Shown piece by piece: positions 10,985 through 53,055 of a DNA stretch of 64,000 bases. The translations under genes were made by a program, and so were the position numbers. Source of the DNA: Patescibacteria group bacterium (GTDB lineage: Bacteria; Patescibacteriota; Minisyncoccia; Ryanbacterales; GWA2-47-10b); assembly GCA_038065475.1 (NCBI GenBank), contig JBBTQY010000001.1:26145-90144 (forward strand), read 5' to 3'. The notes under the pieces were generated by a model that was not told the DNA's origin, did no database searches, and saw nothing but the letters and a program-made list of their open reading frames with translations. Position 1 is the stretch's first letter. The number at the start of each line of letters is the position of its first letter.

Positions 10985-11917
10985 CTACTGCTTCTCGGGC
11001 TGCTGATCCTGCTGCGGGACCGGCTTGATCTGCCCACGAAGGTACTCTGCTGCTACCAGCGAGTCTCCCAGGGGGCTCGCCTCACCCGTGATGATGAGCG
11101 TATTGGTGCCCGACTTGGAGCCCGTCTCGGCGATGCGTTCGAGCGACTCCCACTTCATGAAGGTCACGTACTCGGGGTTGGCACGGAGCGCGGCACCGAT
11201 GGCGTTGATGGCCGTCACCTTGGCGGCGGCTGACGCACTTTGGTTTTGCGCTCCCCATACCGTCTCGTCGGGCTTCACATTCGATAGCGAGACGTTCTGG
11301 AGGTCGAGCGGAACACCGTTGGCAGCAAAGGTATCCTTGACCATCTTGGCAATCTTGTCGTTGACCGCCTGATAGTCGGAGTACACGGCCTGGTAATCGT
11401 CGTAGCCCGCGAAGATGGCGCGCACCTTGCTGCGCACATCCATGCGAGCGAAACGATTGTAGACGTCTTCGACCGTGATGTAGCGGACGAGGACATCATT
11501 CTTGCCATCGCGCGGCGTGACGAGCGCGAAGACGTTGTTGCGCTGCTTGTTCGCATCGGTATTGCCACCCGGAATCACCGCCCTGATGTAGACGTCGACG
11601 GCGAGTGGCGTACCCTTGCGAGTCAGCACGCGGTGATCCTGCTTGTCTTCGTTGCCCACGGCATCAGGAGCCATGAACTGCTCTTTGACCAGCGTCGAGG
11701 TCGCCTCGAGTAGCACCAGCGTGTTGTAGGTGCCGTTGGCATTCGACTGCCCAAGGTCAACCTGACCCGCTTCGCGGATGTCATCCTCCCAACCAGTGGG
11801 CGTGAGTATGCGACCCACGAATCCTGCTGGGATCTCCTTGACATTGCTGCACGCGCTACCGAACAGCGCCAGCGCGATGACAATGCCAAACACAAGCCTC
11901 TTGATATCTCTCTGCAT
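10985..11917 (-). CDS. SPFH/band-7 (HflK/C-like) domain lipoprotein
   Basis: Signal peptide with a Cys near the cleavage site (LFGSAC). The C-terminal …AIGAALRANPEYVTFMKWESLERIAETGSKSGTNTLII… resembles the HflC/stomatin C-terminus. GC-rich gene with a strong SD (gaGGAGGGcatcATG). Confidence 0.5.
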   Translation of the reverse strand: MQRDIKRLVFGIVIALALFGSACSNVKEIPAGFVGRILTPTGWEDDIREAGQVDLGQSNANGTYNTLVLLEATSTLVKEQFMAPDAVGNEDKQDHRVLTRKGTPLAVDVYIRAVIPGGNTDANKQRNNVFALVTPRDGKNDVLVRYITVEDVYNRFARMDVRSKVRAIFAGYDDYQAVYSDYQAVNDKIAKMVKDTFAANGVPLDLQNVSLSNVKPDETVWGAQNQSASAAAKVTAINAIGAALRANPEYVTFMKWESLERIAETGSKSGTNTLIITGEASPLGDSLVAAEYLRGQIKPVPQQDQQPEKQ

Positions 11918-11930
11918 GATGCCCTCCTCT

Positions 11931-12233
11931 TCAGTGAGCGTTGGAGTGGGCGTCGCCGGCCCGATCTTCGAAGCGATCGATCTGCCGATTGACGTCGGTA
12001 CGGTCGATGACCGCGCGTGGCGTCACGTTGACGCTCGCGGCTGCGAAGAGCTGCCAGATGAAGGCGGCCATGAGGATCAGGCCAAGAATGTTGCGCCCTC
12101 TGCGGATGAACACCTTGACGTCATCCTCGACCTCGGGCTGGGTCAAGAAGACCCACGCGACGCCAAACACGAAGGCGAGCGCTCCGAGCGTGCCTAGCAC
12201 ACCTGGATGTGCCCATCTCAAGAAATCTTCCAC
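11931..12233 (-). CDS. small two-TM membrane protein, co-operonic with the SPFH-like gene (NfeD-like partner?)
   Basis: 100 aa, GTG start preceded by AAGGGAG. 13-nt gap to the SPFH-like gene. GC-rich. Confidence 0.4.
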   Translation of the reverse strand: MEDFLRWAHPGVLGTLGALAFVFGVAWVFLTQPEVEDDVKVFIRRGRNILGLILMAAFIWQLFAAASVNVTPRAVIDRTDVNRQIDRFEDRAGDAHSNAH

Positions 12234-12454
12234 GACTTCTCCCTTCTGCCCATGCCTGCCGTTTGGTCAGGACTTATTGAGCATCCTCTGTTTATTGGAG
12301 CAGAAAGTGAACGAACAACCGAAAAAATAATACACTATTTTAAACTATATGTCAATCATCGCCGAGCGCGGGTTCTGAAAAATATTTCTAAGGATTGAGT
12401 CCGAAGTCAGCACAGCTGGTCCAGAATGGCTGTGGCTCTGCGTCAGCGCATATA

Positions 12455-27821: not shown

Positions 27822-28400
27822 TTACTGGGCCCAGCAAAACGCCTTGCAATAGTTGAACCTTGCTCGGCATTGCTTGATGGACACTCCGAGCGAAGCGCAC
27901 AAGCCCCTGGTGCAGGGGCGCTCACCGACTATCGGGTCGCAGATCTGCTCGCAGCAGTTCACCTCGGGCGGGCACTGCCCGCAGTACTGGCCGACGCATG
28001 TGCGCCAGACCTGATTGACGTAGCGCAGCGTGCACCCGTTTTGTCCGTACATGCCGACGCCGATACCGTGGTTACCATCCTGAGCGGTGAAGGACACCTC
28101 GAAGGTGTCGGACGTGAGTGCGCCGAGGACAACGTCGGAGTAAGGCTGATGCTCGATCCTGACGCCGTCTCGGAAGACGTCGAGTACGATCGTGACCGGC
28201 ACGTTGGGTGCGAGCGTCACATTCGTGATCTCGGCCGAGCAGTTGACCGGCTGACCTGCCGTCGGATTGTCCGGCACGCAGGTCGTCTGGATGTGGGCCA
28301 GCGGTGAAGTGGCCGGGCACTCGGCCGTCGCATGCGCATCCTCGGTGAAAACGGCGCAAAGCACGGCGAGAGCGATGATCGTTGCGGTAATGAACTTCAT
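27822..28400 (-). CDS. secreted Cys-rich protein (paralog 1)
   Basis: Signal peptide. Cys-rich C-terminal tail ending …CKAFCWAQ. GC-rich with a strong SD (AGGGAG). Paralog of 28426..29019. Confidence 0.55.
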   Translation of the reverse strand: MKFITATIIALAVLCAVFTEDAHATAECPATSPLAHIQTTCVPDNPTAGQPVNCSAEITNVTLAPNVPVTIVLDVFRDGVRIEHQPYSDVVLGALTSDTFEVSFTAQDGNHGIGVGMYGQNGCTLRYVNQVWRTCVGQYCGQCPPEVNCCEQICDPIVGERPCTRGLCASLGVSIKQCRARFNYCKAFCWAQ

Positions 28401-28425: not shown

Positions 28426-29019
28426 CTACTGCCAGTAGCCGCAGGTTTCTTTGCATTCCTTGAGAAGGGCGGCGCACTTCGAACTGTTCTTCTTCTGCCA
28501 GACGCACTGACCGTACGCCTTCATGTTGGTCATGTTCTCGTAGGCCTTGCACTCGTCTGAGCACGCAGGCGCTGGCGGCGCCTCACACGCCAACTCCTTC
28601 ACATCGAGAACGGCGACCTCATTCCATGCGTAGTTGGGACACCAACCGACACCGTACAGACCGAGGCGAGCAAAGTGCTTGCCCGCGGGCAGTACACATT
28701 GGAACTCGAGGATCTTGATCTCGTCCTGATCGAACCAGACCCCCTCGTTCTGCACCTTGCATGAGGTCTCGCCGCCATTATAGAAAACTTCGAGTAGCAC
28801 GACGAAGTCCGCGCCCACTCCGCGGTTCTCGATCCACGCCTTGCAGACCGACACATCGCCCGCACTTGCGGGGACGCACTCGGTCCGGTGATGCTGGAGC
28901 GGCGAGCAAAGCGCATCACCACAGGTCGCGCTGGCGAAGGAGGCGAACACGCCGAAGATGAGTGCCGCCAGCAACGAAACTGCTGACCGGACCCAGCGCC
29001 CTCTCTTGATTCTTTTCAT
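28426..29019 (-). CDS. secreted Cys-rich protein (paralog 2)
   Basis: Signal peptide. Colinear with paralog 1 (TECVP/TTCVP, GLYGVGWCP/GMYGQNGCT) and ends …CKETCGYWQ. GC-rich. Confidence 0.55.
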   Translation of the reverse strand: MKRIKRGRWVRSAVSLLAALIFGVFASFASATCGDALCSPLQHHRTECVPASAGDVSVCKAWIENRGVGADFVVLLEVFYNGGETSCKVQNEGVWFDQDEIKILEFQCVLPAGKHFARLGLYGVGWCPNYAWNEVAVLDVKELACEAPPAPACSDECKAYENMTNMKAYGQCVWQKKNSSKCAALLKECKETCGYWQ

Positions 29020-41625: not shown

Positions 41626-42513
41626 TTGGGGTTCCTTTTGTGTTTTAGGATCTTTGACTACACAACGGGGGGAAATGTGAGCCTAGACACTTTACGTGCA
41701 AAAGCGAAGATCTGGTCCTCCAGATTCATTCCGCCACAGCATTGCATACCTCTATCCAACGAGGCGTATCGGGAGATCCGATTCTTCCGGCATCCAGACG
41801 TACGCGTCCTCGACGGCGTGATCCATCACAAGGTCAAAATCGAAAACGGCGTGATCGTCCTCATGTGCTGCGACGGCGATCGCTTTCTTGCTGGACTCCT
41901 GTCCATCGCAGGGCTGTTCGCGACCAAGCACCGGTGGTCGACGCGCGTCGCAAGCTGGATGAAACGTACTTCGCTACTCTTCATCTGGGCCTTCGTGTTC
42001 ATCTATCCACGCATGCACGTCATCTCACGACACGCGGGTGCCCATCGAGTCGTGAAGGGGTCACGCACCAATGCGCCGGGTCGCGCAACAGACAAAGACC
42101 TGCTCGACGACATCATGATGGCGATAGAGCGCATGGGCATCTACCAGATTGTCCTGCTCGACCACTGCGCCTGCCTGAAGCTTGGCGATCATAACTTCAC
42201 GGTCAACGAGCAATTCCACGATCTATTCGAAGCTCGAGATCGCATTGTCGCAGAGTATGCGAAGGTGCGATCTGAAAAAGCCGTTCGTCTTGCTGCGGAT
42301 GGCGACCTGCACGCAGCGACTACCTTGCCAAACCTCCAGGTCATCTGCATGTGCCAGGTCGACTACGGAAAGAAAACTTGGTGGCAAAGACGAAAACTAC
42401 GCACCTACCACCTGGATGGTGCACGGCTCATCGAAGTCGACATCACCAGGCACAAGCCGGCTCACAACCCGAAGATCGCGCGAGCGATCTCCGACTATCT
42501 CGAGGCTGCCTGA
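41626..42513 (+). CDS. hypothetical protein (GC-rich island)
   Basis: TTG start preceded by GGAGGGG. Terminator follows. No recognisable family. Confidence 0.45.
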   Translation: MGFLLCFRIFDYTTGGNVSLDTLRAKAKIWSSRFIPPQHCIPLSNEAYREIRFFRHPDVRVLDGVIHHKVKIENGVIVLMCCDGDRFLAGLLSIAGLFATKHRWSTRVASWMKRTSLLFIWAFVFIYPRMHVISRHAGAHRVVKGSRTNAPGRATDKDLLDDIMMAIERMGIYQIVLLDHCACLKLGDHNFTVNEQFHDLFEARDRIVAEYAKVRSEKAVRLAADGDLHAATTLPNLQVICMCQVDYGKKTWWQRRKLRTYHLDGARLIEVDITRHKPAHNPKIARAISDYLEAA

Positions 42514-49541: not shown

Positions 49542-50303
49542 TTAGTGGGATGGTTCTTCGCTCGTTGCCATGGCCACAAAAACCATCGTAAGCATGGCAA
49601 AGATAAATGCTTGAATAAATCCTACAAAAACTTCAAGGAAAAGAAATGGGAGAGGTACTATGTATGGCACCAAAAATCCAATAATGATGAGTAGTACCTC
49701 GCCCGCAAACACATTGCCAAAGAGTCGAAACGAGAATGAGATTATTTTAACAAATTCGGCTACAAATTCAAGGAGCCCGACAAAGGTAAAGACAGGATTT
49801 TTAAAAGTAAAATATTTTGAAAAATGCTTCACGAAACCTACTGCGAGCACTCCAAAAAACTGCACTGCGAAAACTGAGATGATAGCAAGCGCAATAGTAA
49901 AGTTTAAATCTGCAGCCGGCGCGCGCAAGAGCGGTACAAACGCTTCATGTCCATCATGAACCACATGAAGACCCAGCGATCCTACAATTGGCAACAGACC
50001 AAACCAATTGGAGATCATAATAAACAAAAATACTGTGGCAATGAGCGGAAAATATTTTTCTGATGTGTGGCGATTACCAAAAACTGAATCCATCACGCCT
50101 AAAAGCTGCTCCATTAACAACTCGAAAACGCTCTGAAGTTTACCGGGTACAAGCGCTATTTTTTTTCGCACCACCAGCGCGACGATAAGCAAAACGAGAA
50201 GTGTAATGACGGAAAGCAAAAAAGAATTTGTCACACTAAACGTGCCGATATGAAAAAGTTCTTCTGCTTTGATAGAGATTTCAGTCATGAATAGGCTTAT
50301 CAT
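49542..50303 (-). CDS. atpB: ATP synthase subunit a
   Basis: FSFRLFGNVFAGE (the a-subunit Arg motif) in the penultimate TM. Confidence 0.85.
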   Translation of the reverse strand: MISLFMTEISIKAEELFHIGTFSVTNSFLLSVITLLVLLIVALVVRKKIALVPGKLQSVFELLMEQLLGVMDSVFGNRHTSEKYFPLIATVFLFIMISNWFGLLPIVGSLGLHVVHDGHEAFVPLLRAPAADLNFTIALAIISVFAVQFFGVLAVGFVKHFSKYFTFKNPVFTFVGLLEFVAEFVKIISFSFRLFGNVFAGEVLLIIIGFLVPYIVPLPFLFLEVFVGFIQAFIFAMLTMVFVAMATSEEPSH

Positions 50304-50328
50304 GCCAAAAAATAACGCTTTTTGGATG

Positions 50329-50357
50329 TTGACATTTACTTAAAAATAGAGTATAAT
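50329..50357 (+). promoter_or_regulatory. consensus sigma70-type promoter (TTGACA-17-TATAAT)
   Basis: Exact TTGACA at 50329–50334, a 17-nt spacer, and exact TATAAT at 50352–50357. Lies between the atp operon start (minus strand) and a GC-rich ORF (plus strand). Confidence 0.45.
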
Positions 50358-50422
50358 GCACATAGGTACGTTCATCTTTTTTTTCATCAACAGCGCGACA
50401 ATAGTCGCAGGAGGACATAAGA

Positions 50423-50674
50423 TTGGCAAAACAAGTAGAGTACAAAGGCCCCCCGTGTCCGACTCACGGAGAGGATACGACGGAGAAATGCAGAGAGCTC
50501 TGCGTCTGGCCAGACAGCGAGCTCGCAGCGCGAGTAGCGCTCGTGCCCGCAGCTCCCAACTGCTCGACAAAGCCAGTCGACGGCCTCTGCGGCAAGCACG
50601 GAAGGCCGATGGAGCGCGGCATGAGCCGTCGCCATCCGCGCCGGCCTCTGTGCGTGGGCGCCTTCCCCTCCTGA
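50423..50674 (+). CDS. Cys-rich 83-aa protein (GC-rich island)
   Basis: TTG start 8 nt after AGGAGG. 8 Cys residues. Two stem-loops after the stop, the second with a T-run. Confidence 0.4.
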   Translation: MAKQVEYKGPPCPTHGEDTTEKCRELCVWPDSELAARVALVPAAPNCSTKPVDGLCGKHGRPMERGMSRRHPRRPLCVGAFPS

Positions 50675-50705
50675 CTACGCTCGTGGCGTAGTCGCCAACC
50701 CCAAC

Positions 50706-50746
50706 CCGCCAGCAGTCACGACGACTGCTGGCGGCTTTATTTTTTG
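50706..50746 (+). terminator. rho-independent terminator
   Basis: Perfect 12-bp stem ccgccagcagtc/gactgctggcgg followed by CTTTATTTTTTG. Confidence 0.6.
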
Positions 50747-50777
50747 TAGAAAAAAACGGCCCGTGATGACCGTTTGA

Positions 50778-50966
50778 CTATCCGAGATATTGACCGAAGC
50801 GATCGCGCACAGGACACCCCTCGGGATCGCAATAGGCTTCACGTGCTGGATCATAGTGAAGCCCATGCGCCTCGGCTACCTGAATATTGCGTGGATTGTC
50901 CGGCGAGAGATCCGGATCGAACCCTGGCAACCTCTCGTCATTAGTACCTTGTTTACTGTTCTCCAA
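50778..50966 (-). CDS. hypothetical small protein
   Basis: TTG start preceded by AAGGAGG at 7-nt spacing. 62 aa. Confidence 0.4.
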   Translation of the reverse strand: MENSKQGTNDERLPGFDPDLSPDNPRNIQVAEAHGLHYDPAREAYCDPEGCPVRDRFGQYLG

Positions 50967-51023
50967 TGCAAAACCTCCTTAATGAGCTAGAAAAAATATA
51001 CCACACCGTCTAAGAAACCAAAA

Positions 51024-51056
51024 TCCCGCCGAAGGCGGGATTTTGTGTTTTTTAAA
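51024..51056. terminator. bidirectional rho-independent terminator
   Basis: aatcccgccgaaggcgggatt hairpin flanked by A- and T-runs. Confidence 0.5.
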
Positions 51057-53055
51057 ATTCTTTATCCATCGCGGGTTTGTCGGCGGTCTTGCCGTAACCG
51101 CACTGTGGGCCCGGGTCAGGTACGCGTGTACCGTCGGTAGCGGTTACCACGCCTTGGGCCGCATGCCAGTGATCAGCCCCACACCCAACCTCACTTTCAA
51201 TAATCAACTGGTCAACAGGCAAATATTTGCCATTGTATTCGATAACTTTTATTTTCTTTTTCTCTGTAGCGCCAGTTGCGCCACCTCCGGTAGTGCCTGC
51301 TGCTGGCGGATCAATATCGCGTATGGGCTGACCGGGATCAGTCATGGGAGGCGGAGGAGTTTTCGCATCAATCGGACACTGAAGTTCGCCGGGCTTACCA
51401 TCAGCACCGTTGGGCTTGCCAAGACCTCCTTTGCCTCCACCACCCGGGCCGCAACCATCGCCGCCATTGCCACCAACGCCACCAGTCTCATCTTGCACAA
51501 TACCGTCAGCGCCATCACCTGTCGTTCCTTTTCCGGCCTTTCCAATCTTTGTAATTGCATTACCTCCGTTGCCACCTTTGCCGCCGGTCGGTTTCAAGGG
51601 GCAGTTGCCTCCAACGCCGCCATCAGCGCCGTGTGCATTGGCATCGCCGCCATCACCACCAACCGCCTCGCCTGTAGCCCCCGTAAGTTTTAATGACGCA
51701 TCGCCACCTTTGCCACCAGTTGCATTAGCACTGCCACCCTTGCCGCCAGCACACTTGCATCCTGTGCCATTGCCACCCCTACCGGGTTTTGCGAACGCGG
51801 GGCCACCCTCGCCGCCCTCTACTTTATCAACCGTCACACTGCCAATACCTTCAACGGCACCAAGGGCCGCGAGTTCTTTTTTGTTTTTGCCGCCATCACC
51901 ACCTGTTGCAATCGCATCCCCACCCTTGGTACCTGGACAAGCATCGATACCTGGCTTGCCGATTGCAGTGGCTGACCCACCCTGGCCACCCATACCTGGT
52001 ACCACATGAAAATTATTGATAACAATTTTTCCAAGAGCTGTCATTTTGAAGTTGCCAGCAGCACCTCCCACTCCACCGGTCGCATGAGCAGAATCACAGT
52101 CAGCCGTGGTCTCTGCGTCACCTCCTTTGCCGCCATCACCGAGCTCCAGTCTAAAGTTATCAATAGTAATATTTGCGGCATTCACGCGCATACGAAACGC
52201 ATCCTCACCCTTGCCGCCACGCGCGTTGCATGACTTACCAATATCATCATCACCATCGCGCCCATCGGGACCCACAAGATGAAAATCTTTTATCTCAATA
52301 TTACCCTTGTCTCCAAAATCAAAATTGAGAAGGATCTTTTTAACATCTTTTGGTGGTACCGGCACCGCAACGCCAGAAGGAGCTGTGCCTCCGTTGCCGA
52401 TCGTCCACCTGCCGCTCAATATTACTTGTGGCAAAAGATTGCCATCTTTGTCGCGCGCGTCTTGCGCATGAGCCTCACGTATTAAAGAAAACTCTGGGAT
52501 TGATACGGGTTGCCCATTGAGACTTATTTTCTGTATAGCACCTTCGGTAAATGGACCAATGCGCGTCCCCGCGCCACTATTGGTACCCGCTTCCAAAAAC
52601 AATGCGTCGATCTCGCCTTGAGTTTCTTTCGCGAGCGCCGCACTTTGTACAATCTGGACAGAACCATTTGAAGAAACTTCGGCGTCTTTGCTAAATGTTA
52701 TAGGGCCCGCAACCGCCAACACAATACCGACGCCGTCGGTACTGCCATCAGGACGTATACATTCAATGCGACGATTTACTTGGAGCGCGCCTGAAACCTC
52801 TATCGACGCGGAACCACCATCACACGCAAGCACTCCGTCAATCGTAAGGTCACCATCAACGGCAAGTGATGCATTGTTTTGCAAAACCATCTTGTGGTCA
52901 GATGCGATCGCCTGGCTACCGGCGAGCTTTGTGTCATTTGATATAGTATCGACAATGAACTGCTCTTCGGGCGTATCAGTATTACTGCCCAAATACCAAG
53001 ATCCGCCAATTACCAAAAAAAGTACAACGAGAACAACGAGGATTTTATTAGTCAT
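51052..53055 (-). CDS. glycine-rich repeat surface protein
   Basis: N-terminal TM/signal, a β-rich N-terminal domain, then ~250 aa of GG(K/D/N)GG-type repeats. Confidence 0.6.
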   Translation of the reverse strand: MTNKILVVLVVLFLVIGGSWYLGSNTDTPEEQFIVDTISNDTKLAGSQAIASDHKMVLQNNASLAVDGDLTIDGVLACDGGSASIEVSGALQVNRRIECIRPDGSTDGVGIVLAVAGPITFSKDAEVSSNGSVQIVQSAALAKETQGEIDALFLEAGTNSGAGTRIGPFTEGAIQKISLNGQPVSIPEFSLIREAHAQDARDKDGNLLPQVILSGRWTIGNGGTAPSGVAVPVPPKDVKKILLNFDFGDKGNIEIKDFHLVGPDGRDGDDDIGKSCNARGGKGEDAFRMRVNAANITIDNFRLELGDGGKGGDAETTADCDSAHATGGVGGAAGNFKMTALGKIVINNFHVVPGMGGQGGSATAIGKPGIDACPGTKGGDAIATGGDGGKNKKELAALGAVEGIGSVTVDKVEGGEGGPAFAKPGRGGNGTGCKCAGGKGGSANATGGKGGDASLKLTGATGEAVGGDGGDANAHGADGGVGGNCPLKPTGGKGGNGGNAITKIGKAGKGTTGDGADGIVQDETGGVGGNGGDGCGPGGGGKGGLGKPNGADGKPGELQCPIDAKTPPPPMTDPGQPIRDIDPPAAGTTGGGATGATEKKKIKVIEYNGKYLPVDQLIIESEVGCGADHWHAAQGVVTATDGTRVPDPGPQCGYGKTADKPAMDKEF

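Follow-up and report, generated by a model that had tools for sequence, protein, structure and literature searches.

The DNA beside the atp operon of this Patescibacteria contig raises the question of whether a short GC-rich unit, which begins at a consensus promoter and ends at a terminator, encodes a protein or a structured RNA, and what its product might do. We addressed this question in the window, by which we mean the whole 64-kb stretch of DNA that was analyzed, and in related genomes. The unit contains an open reading frame (50423..50674, plus strand) with a TTG start for a Cys/His-rich protein of 83 aa, which we annotate as a CDS on the basis of three orthologs, a coding signature and the alignment. 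As the initial annotation had noted, the unit is much richer in GC than the atp genes, with 65% GC in the ORF against 41% in atpB and 47% in the whole window. The length of the ORF alone is weak evidence for a gene, because other frames of the same GC-rich stretch are also open, over 111, 82 and 76 aa.

The neighboring gene, atpB (49542..50303, minus strand), encodes ATP synthase subunit a (PF00119 on the product) and is the first gene of the atp operon. The unit had been placed upstream of this operon; its position beside the operon holds, but it is not upstream on the same strand, since atpB lies on the minus strand and the two are divergent. For atpB, the ATG at 50288 is a more probable start than the first ATG (50303), because most relatives align from residue 6 (MTEIS...); neither of these minus-strand ATG codons has an obvious Shine-Dalgarno sequence. 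No promoter-like site was found on the minus strand between atpB and the small gene, so the control regions of the two genes probably overlap.

The comparison rests on four closely related orthologs, namely the window and three loci that we refer to as L002, L015 and L082. Two of these come from metagenome-assembled genomes of Candidatus Ryanbacteria (L002, SICQ01000015; L015, CALRCC010000001), in which AtpB is 87% and 85% identical to that of the window; AtpB identity is thus at least 85% in the two loci for which it was measured, and the AtpB proteins of the next relatives are at most 72% identical. With nhmmer the unit was found 5' of atpB in two loci, L002 and, as a weak match, L015; the third, L082, is a contig from Hainich groundwater that came from scanning metagenomes with a degenerate pattern. 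All four loci share one layout, in which atpB is followed by a short intergenic block, the promoter, a Shine-Dalgarno sequence eight nucleotides from a TTG, an ORF of 71-83 codons and the terminator. The block of about 60 bp that reaches from atpB to the -10 hexamer is near-identical in the window, L002 and L015. On an identical contig in the Logan assembly (L001), no gene is called between atpB and the next ORF, and gene callers mostly miss the gene, with the L015 copy being called.

The promoter is of the sigma-70 type, TTGACA-17-TATAAT at 50329..50357 on the plus strand, and agrees with the consensus at 12 of 12 positions. The initial annotation had described it as exact, and it is in fact the sole exact occurrence of this pattern in the 64-kb window; with at most one mismatch allowed, the pattern occurs three times in the window against 0.51 expected. 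The promoter and its spacer are near-identical in the window, L002 and L015, while L082 carries TTGACT-17-TATAGT. Directly 5' of the -35 hexamer, the sequence reads as an A/T-tract inverted repeat, CCAAAAA-N7-TTTTTGG (50305..50325), inside the block that is near-identical in the same three loci; this repeat may be a UP-element-like tract or a control region common to the divergent atpB.

The second-best promoter of the window, TTGACA-17-TATTAT (12355..12327, minus strand), has a spacer that resembles the one at 50329 (AAAATAGnGTAT). It precedes a two-gene unit of 60% GC with a GC content at third codon positions (GC3) of 0.77, in which an ORF of about 100 aa that looks by eye like a membrane protein (12233..11931, minus strand) is followed by the gene for an SPFH/Band-7 protein (11917..10985, minus strand; PF01145). 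Both near-consensus promoters hence drive GC3-rich genes. Three further ORFs, 27822..28400 (minus strand), 28426..29019 (minus strand) and 41626..42513 (plus strand), have a GC3 of 0.68-0.80 against about 0.35-0.55 in most window genes and gave no Pfam match. There seems to be a distinct class of GC3-rich genes in this genome, either highly expressed or acquired.

The predicted 5' UTR of the small gene (50364..50422, plus strand) contains a small hairpin, GCGAC-AATA-GTCGC (50395-50408), that abuts the Shine-Dalgarno sequence AGGAGG (50409-50414). The TTG at 50423 follows this AGGAGG after eight nucleotides, just as originally proposed, and the arrangement AGGAG[GA]-N8-TTG is preserved in all four orthologs. 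Only the window and L015 have the hairpin; L002 and L082, with leaders of about 20-25 nt, lack it. The sole database entry of the family, the L015 ORF (3904..3668, minus strand; P0002), begins at an upstream ATG whose bases overlap those of the Shine-Dalgarno sequence; the conservation of AGGAGG-N8-TTG points to a start seven codons further in.

Two hairpins close the unit at its 3' end. The first (50672..50694, plus strand) lacks a T-run, and its stem of 10 bp shares bases with the stop codon; in L002 the stem has 9 bp and differs on both sides (GACTACGC/GCGTAGTC vs GACCTCGC/GCGAGGTC), in L082 it is reduced to 6 bp, and it is missing from L015. The second (50706..50746, plus strand) is an intrinsic terminator with a perfect 12-bp stem (50706-50734), a loop of 5 nt and then CTTTATTTTTTG, and six pairs of its stem keep pairing through two-sided changes across the four orthologs. 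The two hairpins that had been reported are therefore real, as are the perfect stem and T-run of the second, but the description as a tandem terminator is an overstatement because the first has no T-run. The promoter hexamers at 17-bp spacing and the terminator stem with its T-run both conform to their consensus and are kept in the orthologs.

The unit is very probably a real protein-coding gene, to judge from the way its four sequences differ. Frame +0 stays open throughout the four orthologs, whereas every other frame has stops in at least one of them, and the insertions and deletions are of whole codons, among them a 12-codon insertion that the window copy carries. For the closest pair, L002 and L082, we counted 10, 8 and 27 differences at the first, second and third codon positions, so that 27 of the 45 fall at third positions (chi-square ~14.5, P ~7e-4), and dN/dS is 0.11; between the window and the other three orthologs it is 0.29-0.37. 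The residues of the Cys/His motifs are kept through differing codons (TGT/TGC, CAC/CAT), and C12, H15, C23, C27, C56, H59, P62, R65, G66, P72, R74 and C77 are invariant in the four-sequence alignment. The gene is under purifying selection, with the scaffold of potential ligands retained. The earlier proposal of a translated, Cys-rich and possibly metal-binding protein behind a strong promoter gains comparative support from the frame, the excess of third-position changes, the dN/dS values of 0.11-0.37 and this scaffold. A gene on the minus strand or in an alternative frame was rejected, as those frames contain stops in the orthologs.

The protein of the window has six Cys (C12, C23, C27, C47, C56 and C77) and three His, which corrects a previous count of eight Cys, and its scaffold reads C12-P-x-H15 ... 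C23-x3-C27 ... C56-x2-H59-x17-C77. Across the orthologs, which are roughly 70-83 aa long, the acidic N-terminal half (pI ~5) holds C-P-x-H-x7-C-x3-C and the basic C-terminal half (pI 9-10.8) holds C-x2-H-x17-C-x2-C, the latter complete in three of the four. The window copy is the atypical one: in the alignment it has Ala in place of the final Cys of C-x2-C, and it has gained H71 as well as C47, which is carried by the 12-codon insertion. The C-terminal site is perhaps altered in this copy, since the last Cys is missing. None of the features of a signal peptide or of a leader/core architecture is present, and conservation extends along the full length of the protein.

The family is fast-evolving, with 30-49% identity among its members compared with 85-87% for AtpB, and searches for relatives returned almost nothing. 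The proteins gave no matches in Pfam, NCBIfam, PHROGs or PADLOC, and the native sequences gave none in Pfam even at E <= 10. An exhaustive phmmer search of 1.84 billion representative proteins found one spurious repeat protein and no credible relative. In a word-indexed search of 5.8 billion proteins, the L002 protein as query found nothing, and the sole sequence recovered with the four-sequence alignment was the L015 ORF itself, from one 552-bp contig. Scans with profiles and regular expressions of the six-frame ORFs at about 80 other atpB loci yielded no further members, and a scan of viral contigs yielded no relatives. In the next relatives (L003 and L004, AtpB 70-72%) other genes lie 5' of atpB, and no such ORF is found there. 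The protein is a lineage-restricted orphan, and its family is known so far from one small clade of Candidatus Ryanbacteria only.

Our preferred reading, which we hold by a narrow preference, is that the unit is a monocistronic gene for a cytoplasmic, two-site zinc-finger-like micro-protein with a regulatory binding role. The transcript would begin about 7 nt past the consensus -10 hexamer and end at the conserved intrinsic terminator, and translation would begin at the conserved TTG eight nucleotides after AGGAGG. The strong promoter and Shine-Dalgarno sequence suggest an abundant protein, and perhaps the conserved, weak TTG start tempers its translation. That the protein binds metal we regard as probable from its residues, and the metal is most likely zinc rather than iron. 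Each half would hold one metal ion, likeliest a structural zinc, by three Cys and one His, and the C-terminal half would fold as a zinc ribbon similar to the DksA/TraR finger in spacing and in flanking residues. This basic C-terminal ribbon might dock on a nucleic acid or on a protein such as RNA polymerase, which would make the protein a small regulator; taken by itself, the role of a regulatory binder is a tentative suggestion that we would sooner doubt than adopt.

Several other readings of the same evidence need to be weighed against the one that we prefer. A GC-rich structured non-coding RNA in which the ORF is incidental would account for a 383-nt unit that folds better than its shuffles (z = -4.56), for 65% GC within surroundings of 47%, for several open reading frames and for an ORF left uncalled by gene callers. 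Much of the fold signal of the whole unit, however, is due to the two 3' hairpins, which together give z = -7.1 on their own, and the CDS alone gives inconsistent z-scores in three orthologs (-2.4, +0.4 and -2.3). RNAalifold on the four orthologs finds compensatory changes essentially confined to the terminator stem, at six pairs, and the 5' UTR hairpin occurs in just two of the four. Across the whole window no Rfam 15 family reached its gathering score, and a search of 50250-50850 at E <= 10 gave chance-level matches only (E >= 0.27, far below gathering); ARAGORN found no tRNA and no tmRNA. GC-richness, which had been taken as characteristic of the unit, is not conserved either, as the orthologs have 65%, 60%, 60% and 46% GC, the lowest being L015, and several other window genes match the ORF in GC3. 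The composition is thus a trait of the lineage or of a gene class and not a sign of RNA structure. Together with the third-position substitutions and whole-codon indels, these observations make the structured RNA raised by the initial annotation extremely improbable. Among specific candidates, RNase P RNA, tmRNA and 6S RNA, first suggested by size and GC content, were rejected. The same annotation had raised a precursor peptide, and a RiPP precursor or a secreted Cys-rich peptide would likewise be small, Cys-rich and fast-evolving; yet no modifying enzyme, transporter or protease adjoins the gene in any of the four loci, and the lack of a signal peptide or leader/core division and the even spread of conservation also speak against it, so that we consider this very unlikely.

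Metal-binding proteins of another kind deserve more weight. Ligation by three Cys and one His is found in zinc sites and in some [2Fe-2S] proteins, and the two such sets in this protein could hold Fe-S clusters or iron in a small iron-sulfur or redox-active protein, the sequence being unable to tell which metal is bound. The pattern C-x2-H-x17-C-x2-C with its basic loop is instead typical of zinc ribbons, the nearest matches are zinc fingers, no Fe-S family in Pfam or NCBIfam is matched, and no Fe-S assembly or redox partner adjoins the gene, which leaves this reading unlikely, if less so than the RNA or the peptide. A partner of ATP synthase, be it a factor for its assembly, an inhibitor or a dedicated regulator of the divergent atp operon, is suggested by the location of the gene, which is divergent from atpB at every ortholog locus, by the near-identical intergenic block with its inverted repeat, and by the probable overlap of the control regions. 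Because the four genomes are so close, the synteny with atpB carries little weight, and the next relatives have other genes in this place; neither Pfam nor NCBIfam, moreover, links the protein to any known ATP synthase subunit, inhibitor or assembly factor. We regard such a partner as improbable, somewhat more so than an iron-sulfur protein, and from the arrangement of the locus a link of the small gene to the atp operon is possible.

The other neighbors across the four loci are an ORF of about 229 aa, an ORF of 62 aa and a Gly-rich protein of 667 aa. The 229-aa ORF is convergent to the small gene in L082 (4288..4977), L002 (2949..3638) and L015 (2933..3622) and looks by eye like a HAD hydrolase. 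In the window it is replaced by a segment of about 300 bp (50754..51045) with the 62-aa ORF (50778..50966, minus strand), which starts at AAGGAGG-N7-TTG and has no Pfam match; a terminator of its own (50775-50754, minus strand) and a bidirectional terminator (51019-51045) flank the segment. The 667-aa protein (51052..53055, minus strand) has, by eye, a hydrophobic N-terminal stretch and long Gly-rich repeats of the GGxGG type. No Pfam family matched this protein, which has a conserved counterpart of 666 aa in L082 and may be a surface protein.

With the two-site zinc-finger-like micro-protein as the preferred reading, the gene amounts to an annotation correction and a candidate regulator. It fills a blank in pipeline annotations with a real, conserved small gene, and it exemplifies how atypical composition hides small genes in Patescibacteria, none having been called on the identical Logan contig. 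Since Patescibacteria commonly contain small orphans restricted to one lineage, a further example will not surprise a specialist; as it stands, the protein is one more lineage-restricted orphan zinc-finger-like micro-protein, useful for annotation. If it were a TraR-like or DNA-binding regulator beside the atp operon, it would offer a handle on the control of energy metabolism in organisms that are unculturable alone. The most specific version of this idea, in which a lineage-specific two-zinc micro-protein with a diverged finger of the TraR/DksA type sets the expression of the atp operon in an ultra-small symbiont, by direct action on RNA polymerase or through the shared divergent control region, strikes us as a long shot; if true, the protein would represent a new class of TraR-like regulators, distinguished by His in the finger and by a second, N-terminal knuckle that replaces the channel-inserting helix.

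How far the likeness to the DksA/TraR family goes can be judged from several comparisons. In this family the N-terminal part forms a long helix or coiled coil, and its acidic tip (D-x2-D-x-A) is inserted into the secondary channel of RNA polymerase. Like the 73-aa TraR (PF01258), the protein described here is small, with an acidic N-terminal part and a basic finger region, and it shares the spacing ligand-x2-ligand-x17-C-x2-C and matching G, hydrophobic, P and L positions. It differs in that the second ligand of the four-Cys finger C-x2-C-x17-C-x2-C is His in all four orthologs and the fourth is Ala in the window copy, in that the finger lies at the extreme C terminus, and in that an additional C-P-x-H...C-x3-C knuckle takes the place of the long helix and its tip, whose motif is missing from the protein. 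The best PDB sequence match of the C-terminal half is a DksA finger (2kq9, E 0.66). An hhalign comparison with TraR yields P = 1.7e-4 and brings the four ligand positions into register; the TraR sequence used scores 50.7 bits as a Pfam control, which confirms its place in the family. Against E. coli DksA, hhalign is not significant, and the native sequences do not reach the gathering score of the PF01258 profile. When His is changed to Cys in silico, the top Pfam match of the mutants is zf-dskA_traR (E 0.006-0.036), at 14.5-17 bits against a cut-off of 24.9. The C-terminal half resembles a DksA/TraR zinc finger, with every score below threshold.

The AlphaFold model of the window protein has a pLDDT of 52.6, too low for use. 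That of the L015 ortholog has a pLDDT of 61.9, with moderate confidence in the C-terminal part only (block means of 64 for residues 41-50 and 75-82 for residues 51-78); residues 41-78 are modeled as short strands and a terminal helix, and the N-terminal half as a short low-confidence helix only. Foldseek against the PDB returned nothing below E = 4, and its top rows are zinc-ribbon-bearing proteins at chance level.

A second known zinc ribbon has the same pattern and spacing, C-x2-H-x17-C-x2-C. This is the CHC2 ribbon of the DnaG type (PF01807), which in E. coli DnaG reads C40-P-F-H43...C61-x2-C64. The small protein lacks primase domains and any Pfam match to this family, and hhalign against the N terminus of DnaG is not significant (P 0.04) and aligns the N-terminal C-P-x-H knuckle only.

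In kind, the closest counterparts are the C(P)XCG zinc-finger micro-proteins known mainly from haloarchaea, among them those of Haloferax volcanii (PMC6562870, PMC10716476, PMC11241148). These belong to another domain of life and have no detectable sequence homology to the protein described here, but they too are single-gene products of about 60-80 aa that are often unannotated and carry knuckles of the C-P-x-[C/H]-G type. Two or more C(P)XCG-like knuckles in fewer than about 70-80 residues characterize the class. The orthologs of our family, at 72-83 aa, carry the knuckles C-P-x-H-G and C-x-x-H-[G/A] in addition to C-x3-C and C-x2-C, with His in place of the second Cys of C(P)XCG proteins in both. 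Halobacterium Brz is encoded directly upstream of the gene that it regulates (PMC2253796), so that its gene stands beside its target as the small gene stands beside atpB, with the difference that brz has the orientation of its target and the small gene is divergent from atpB. Several predicted fingers of the C(P)XCG type do not bind zinc (PMC11241148). The protein would belong in kind with these small zinc-finger micro-proteins, its zinc binding being a prediction.
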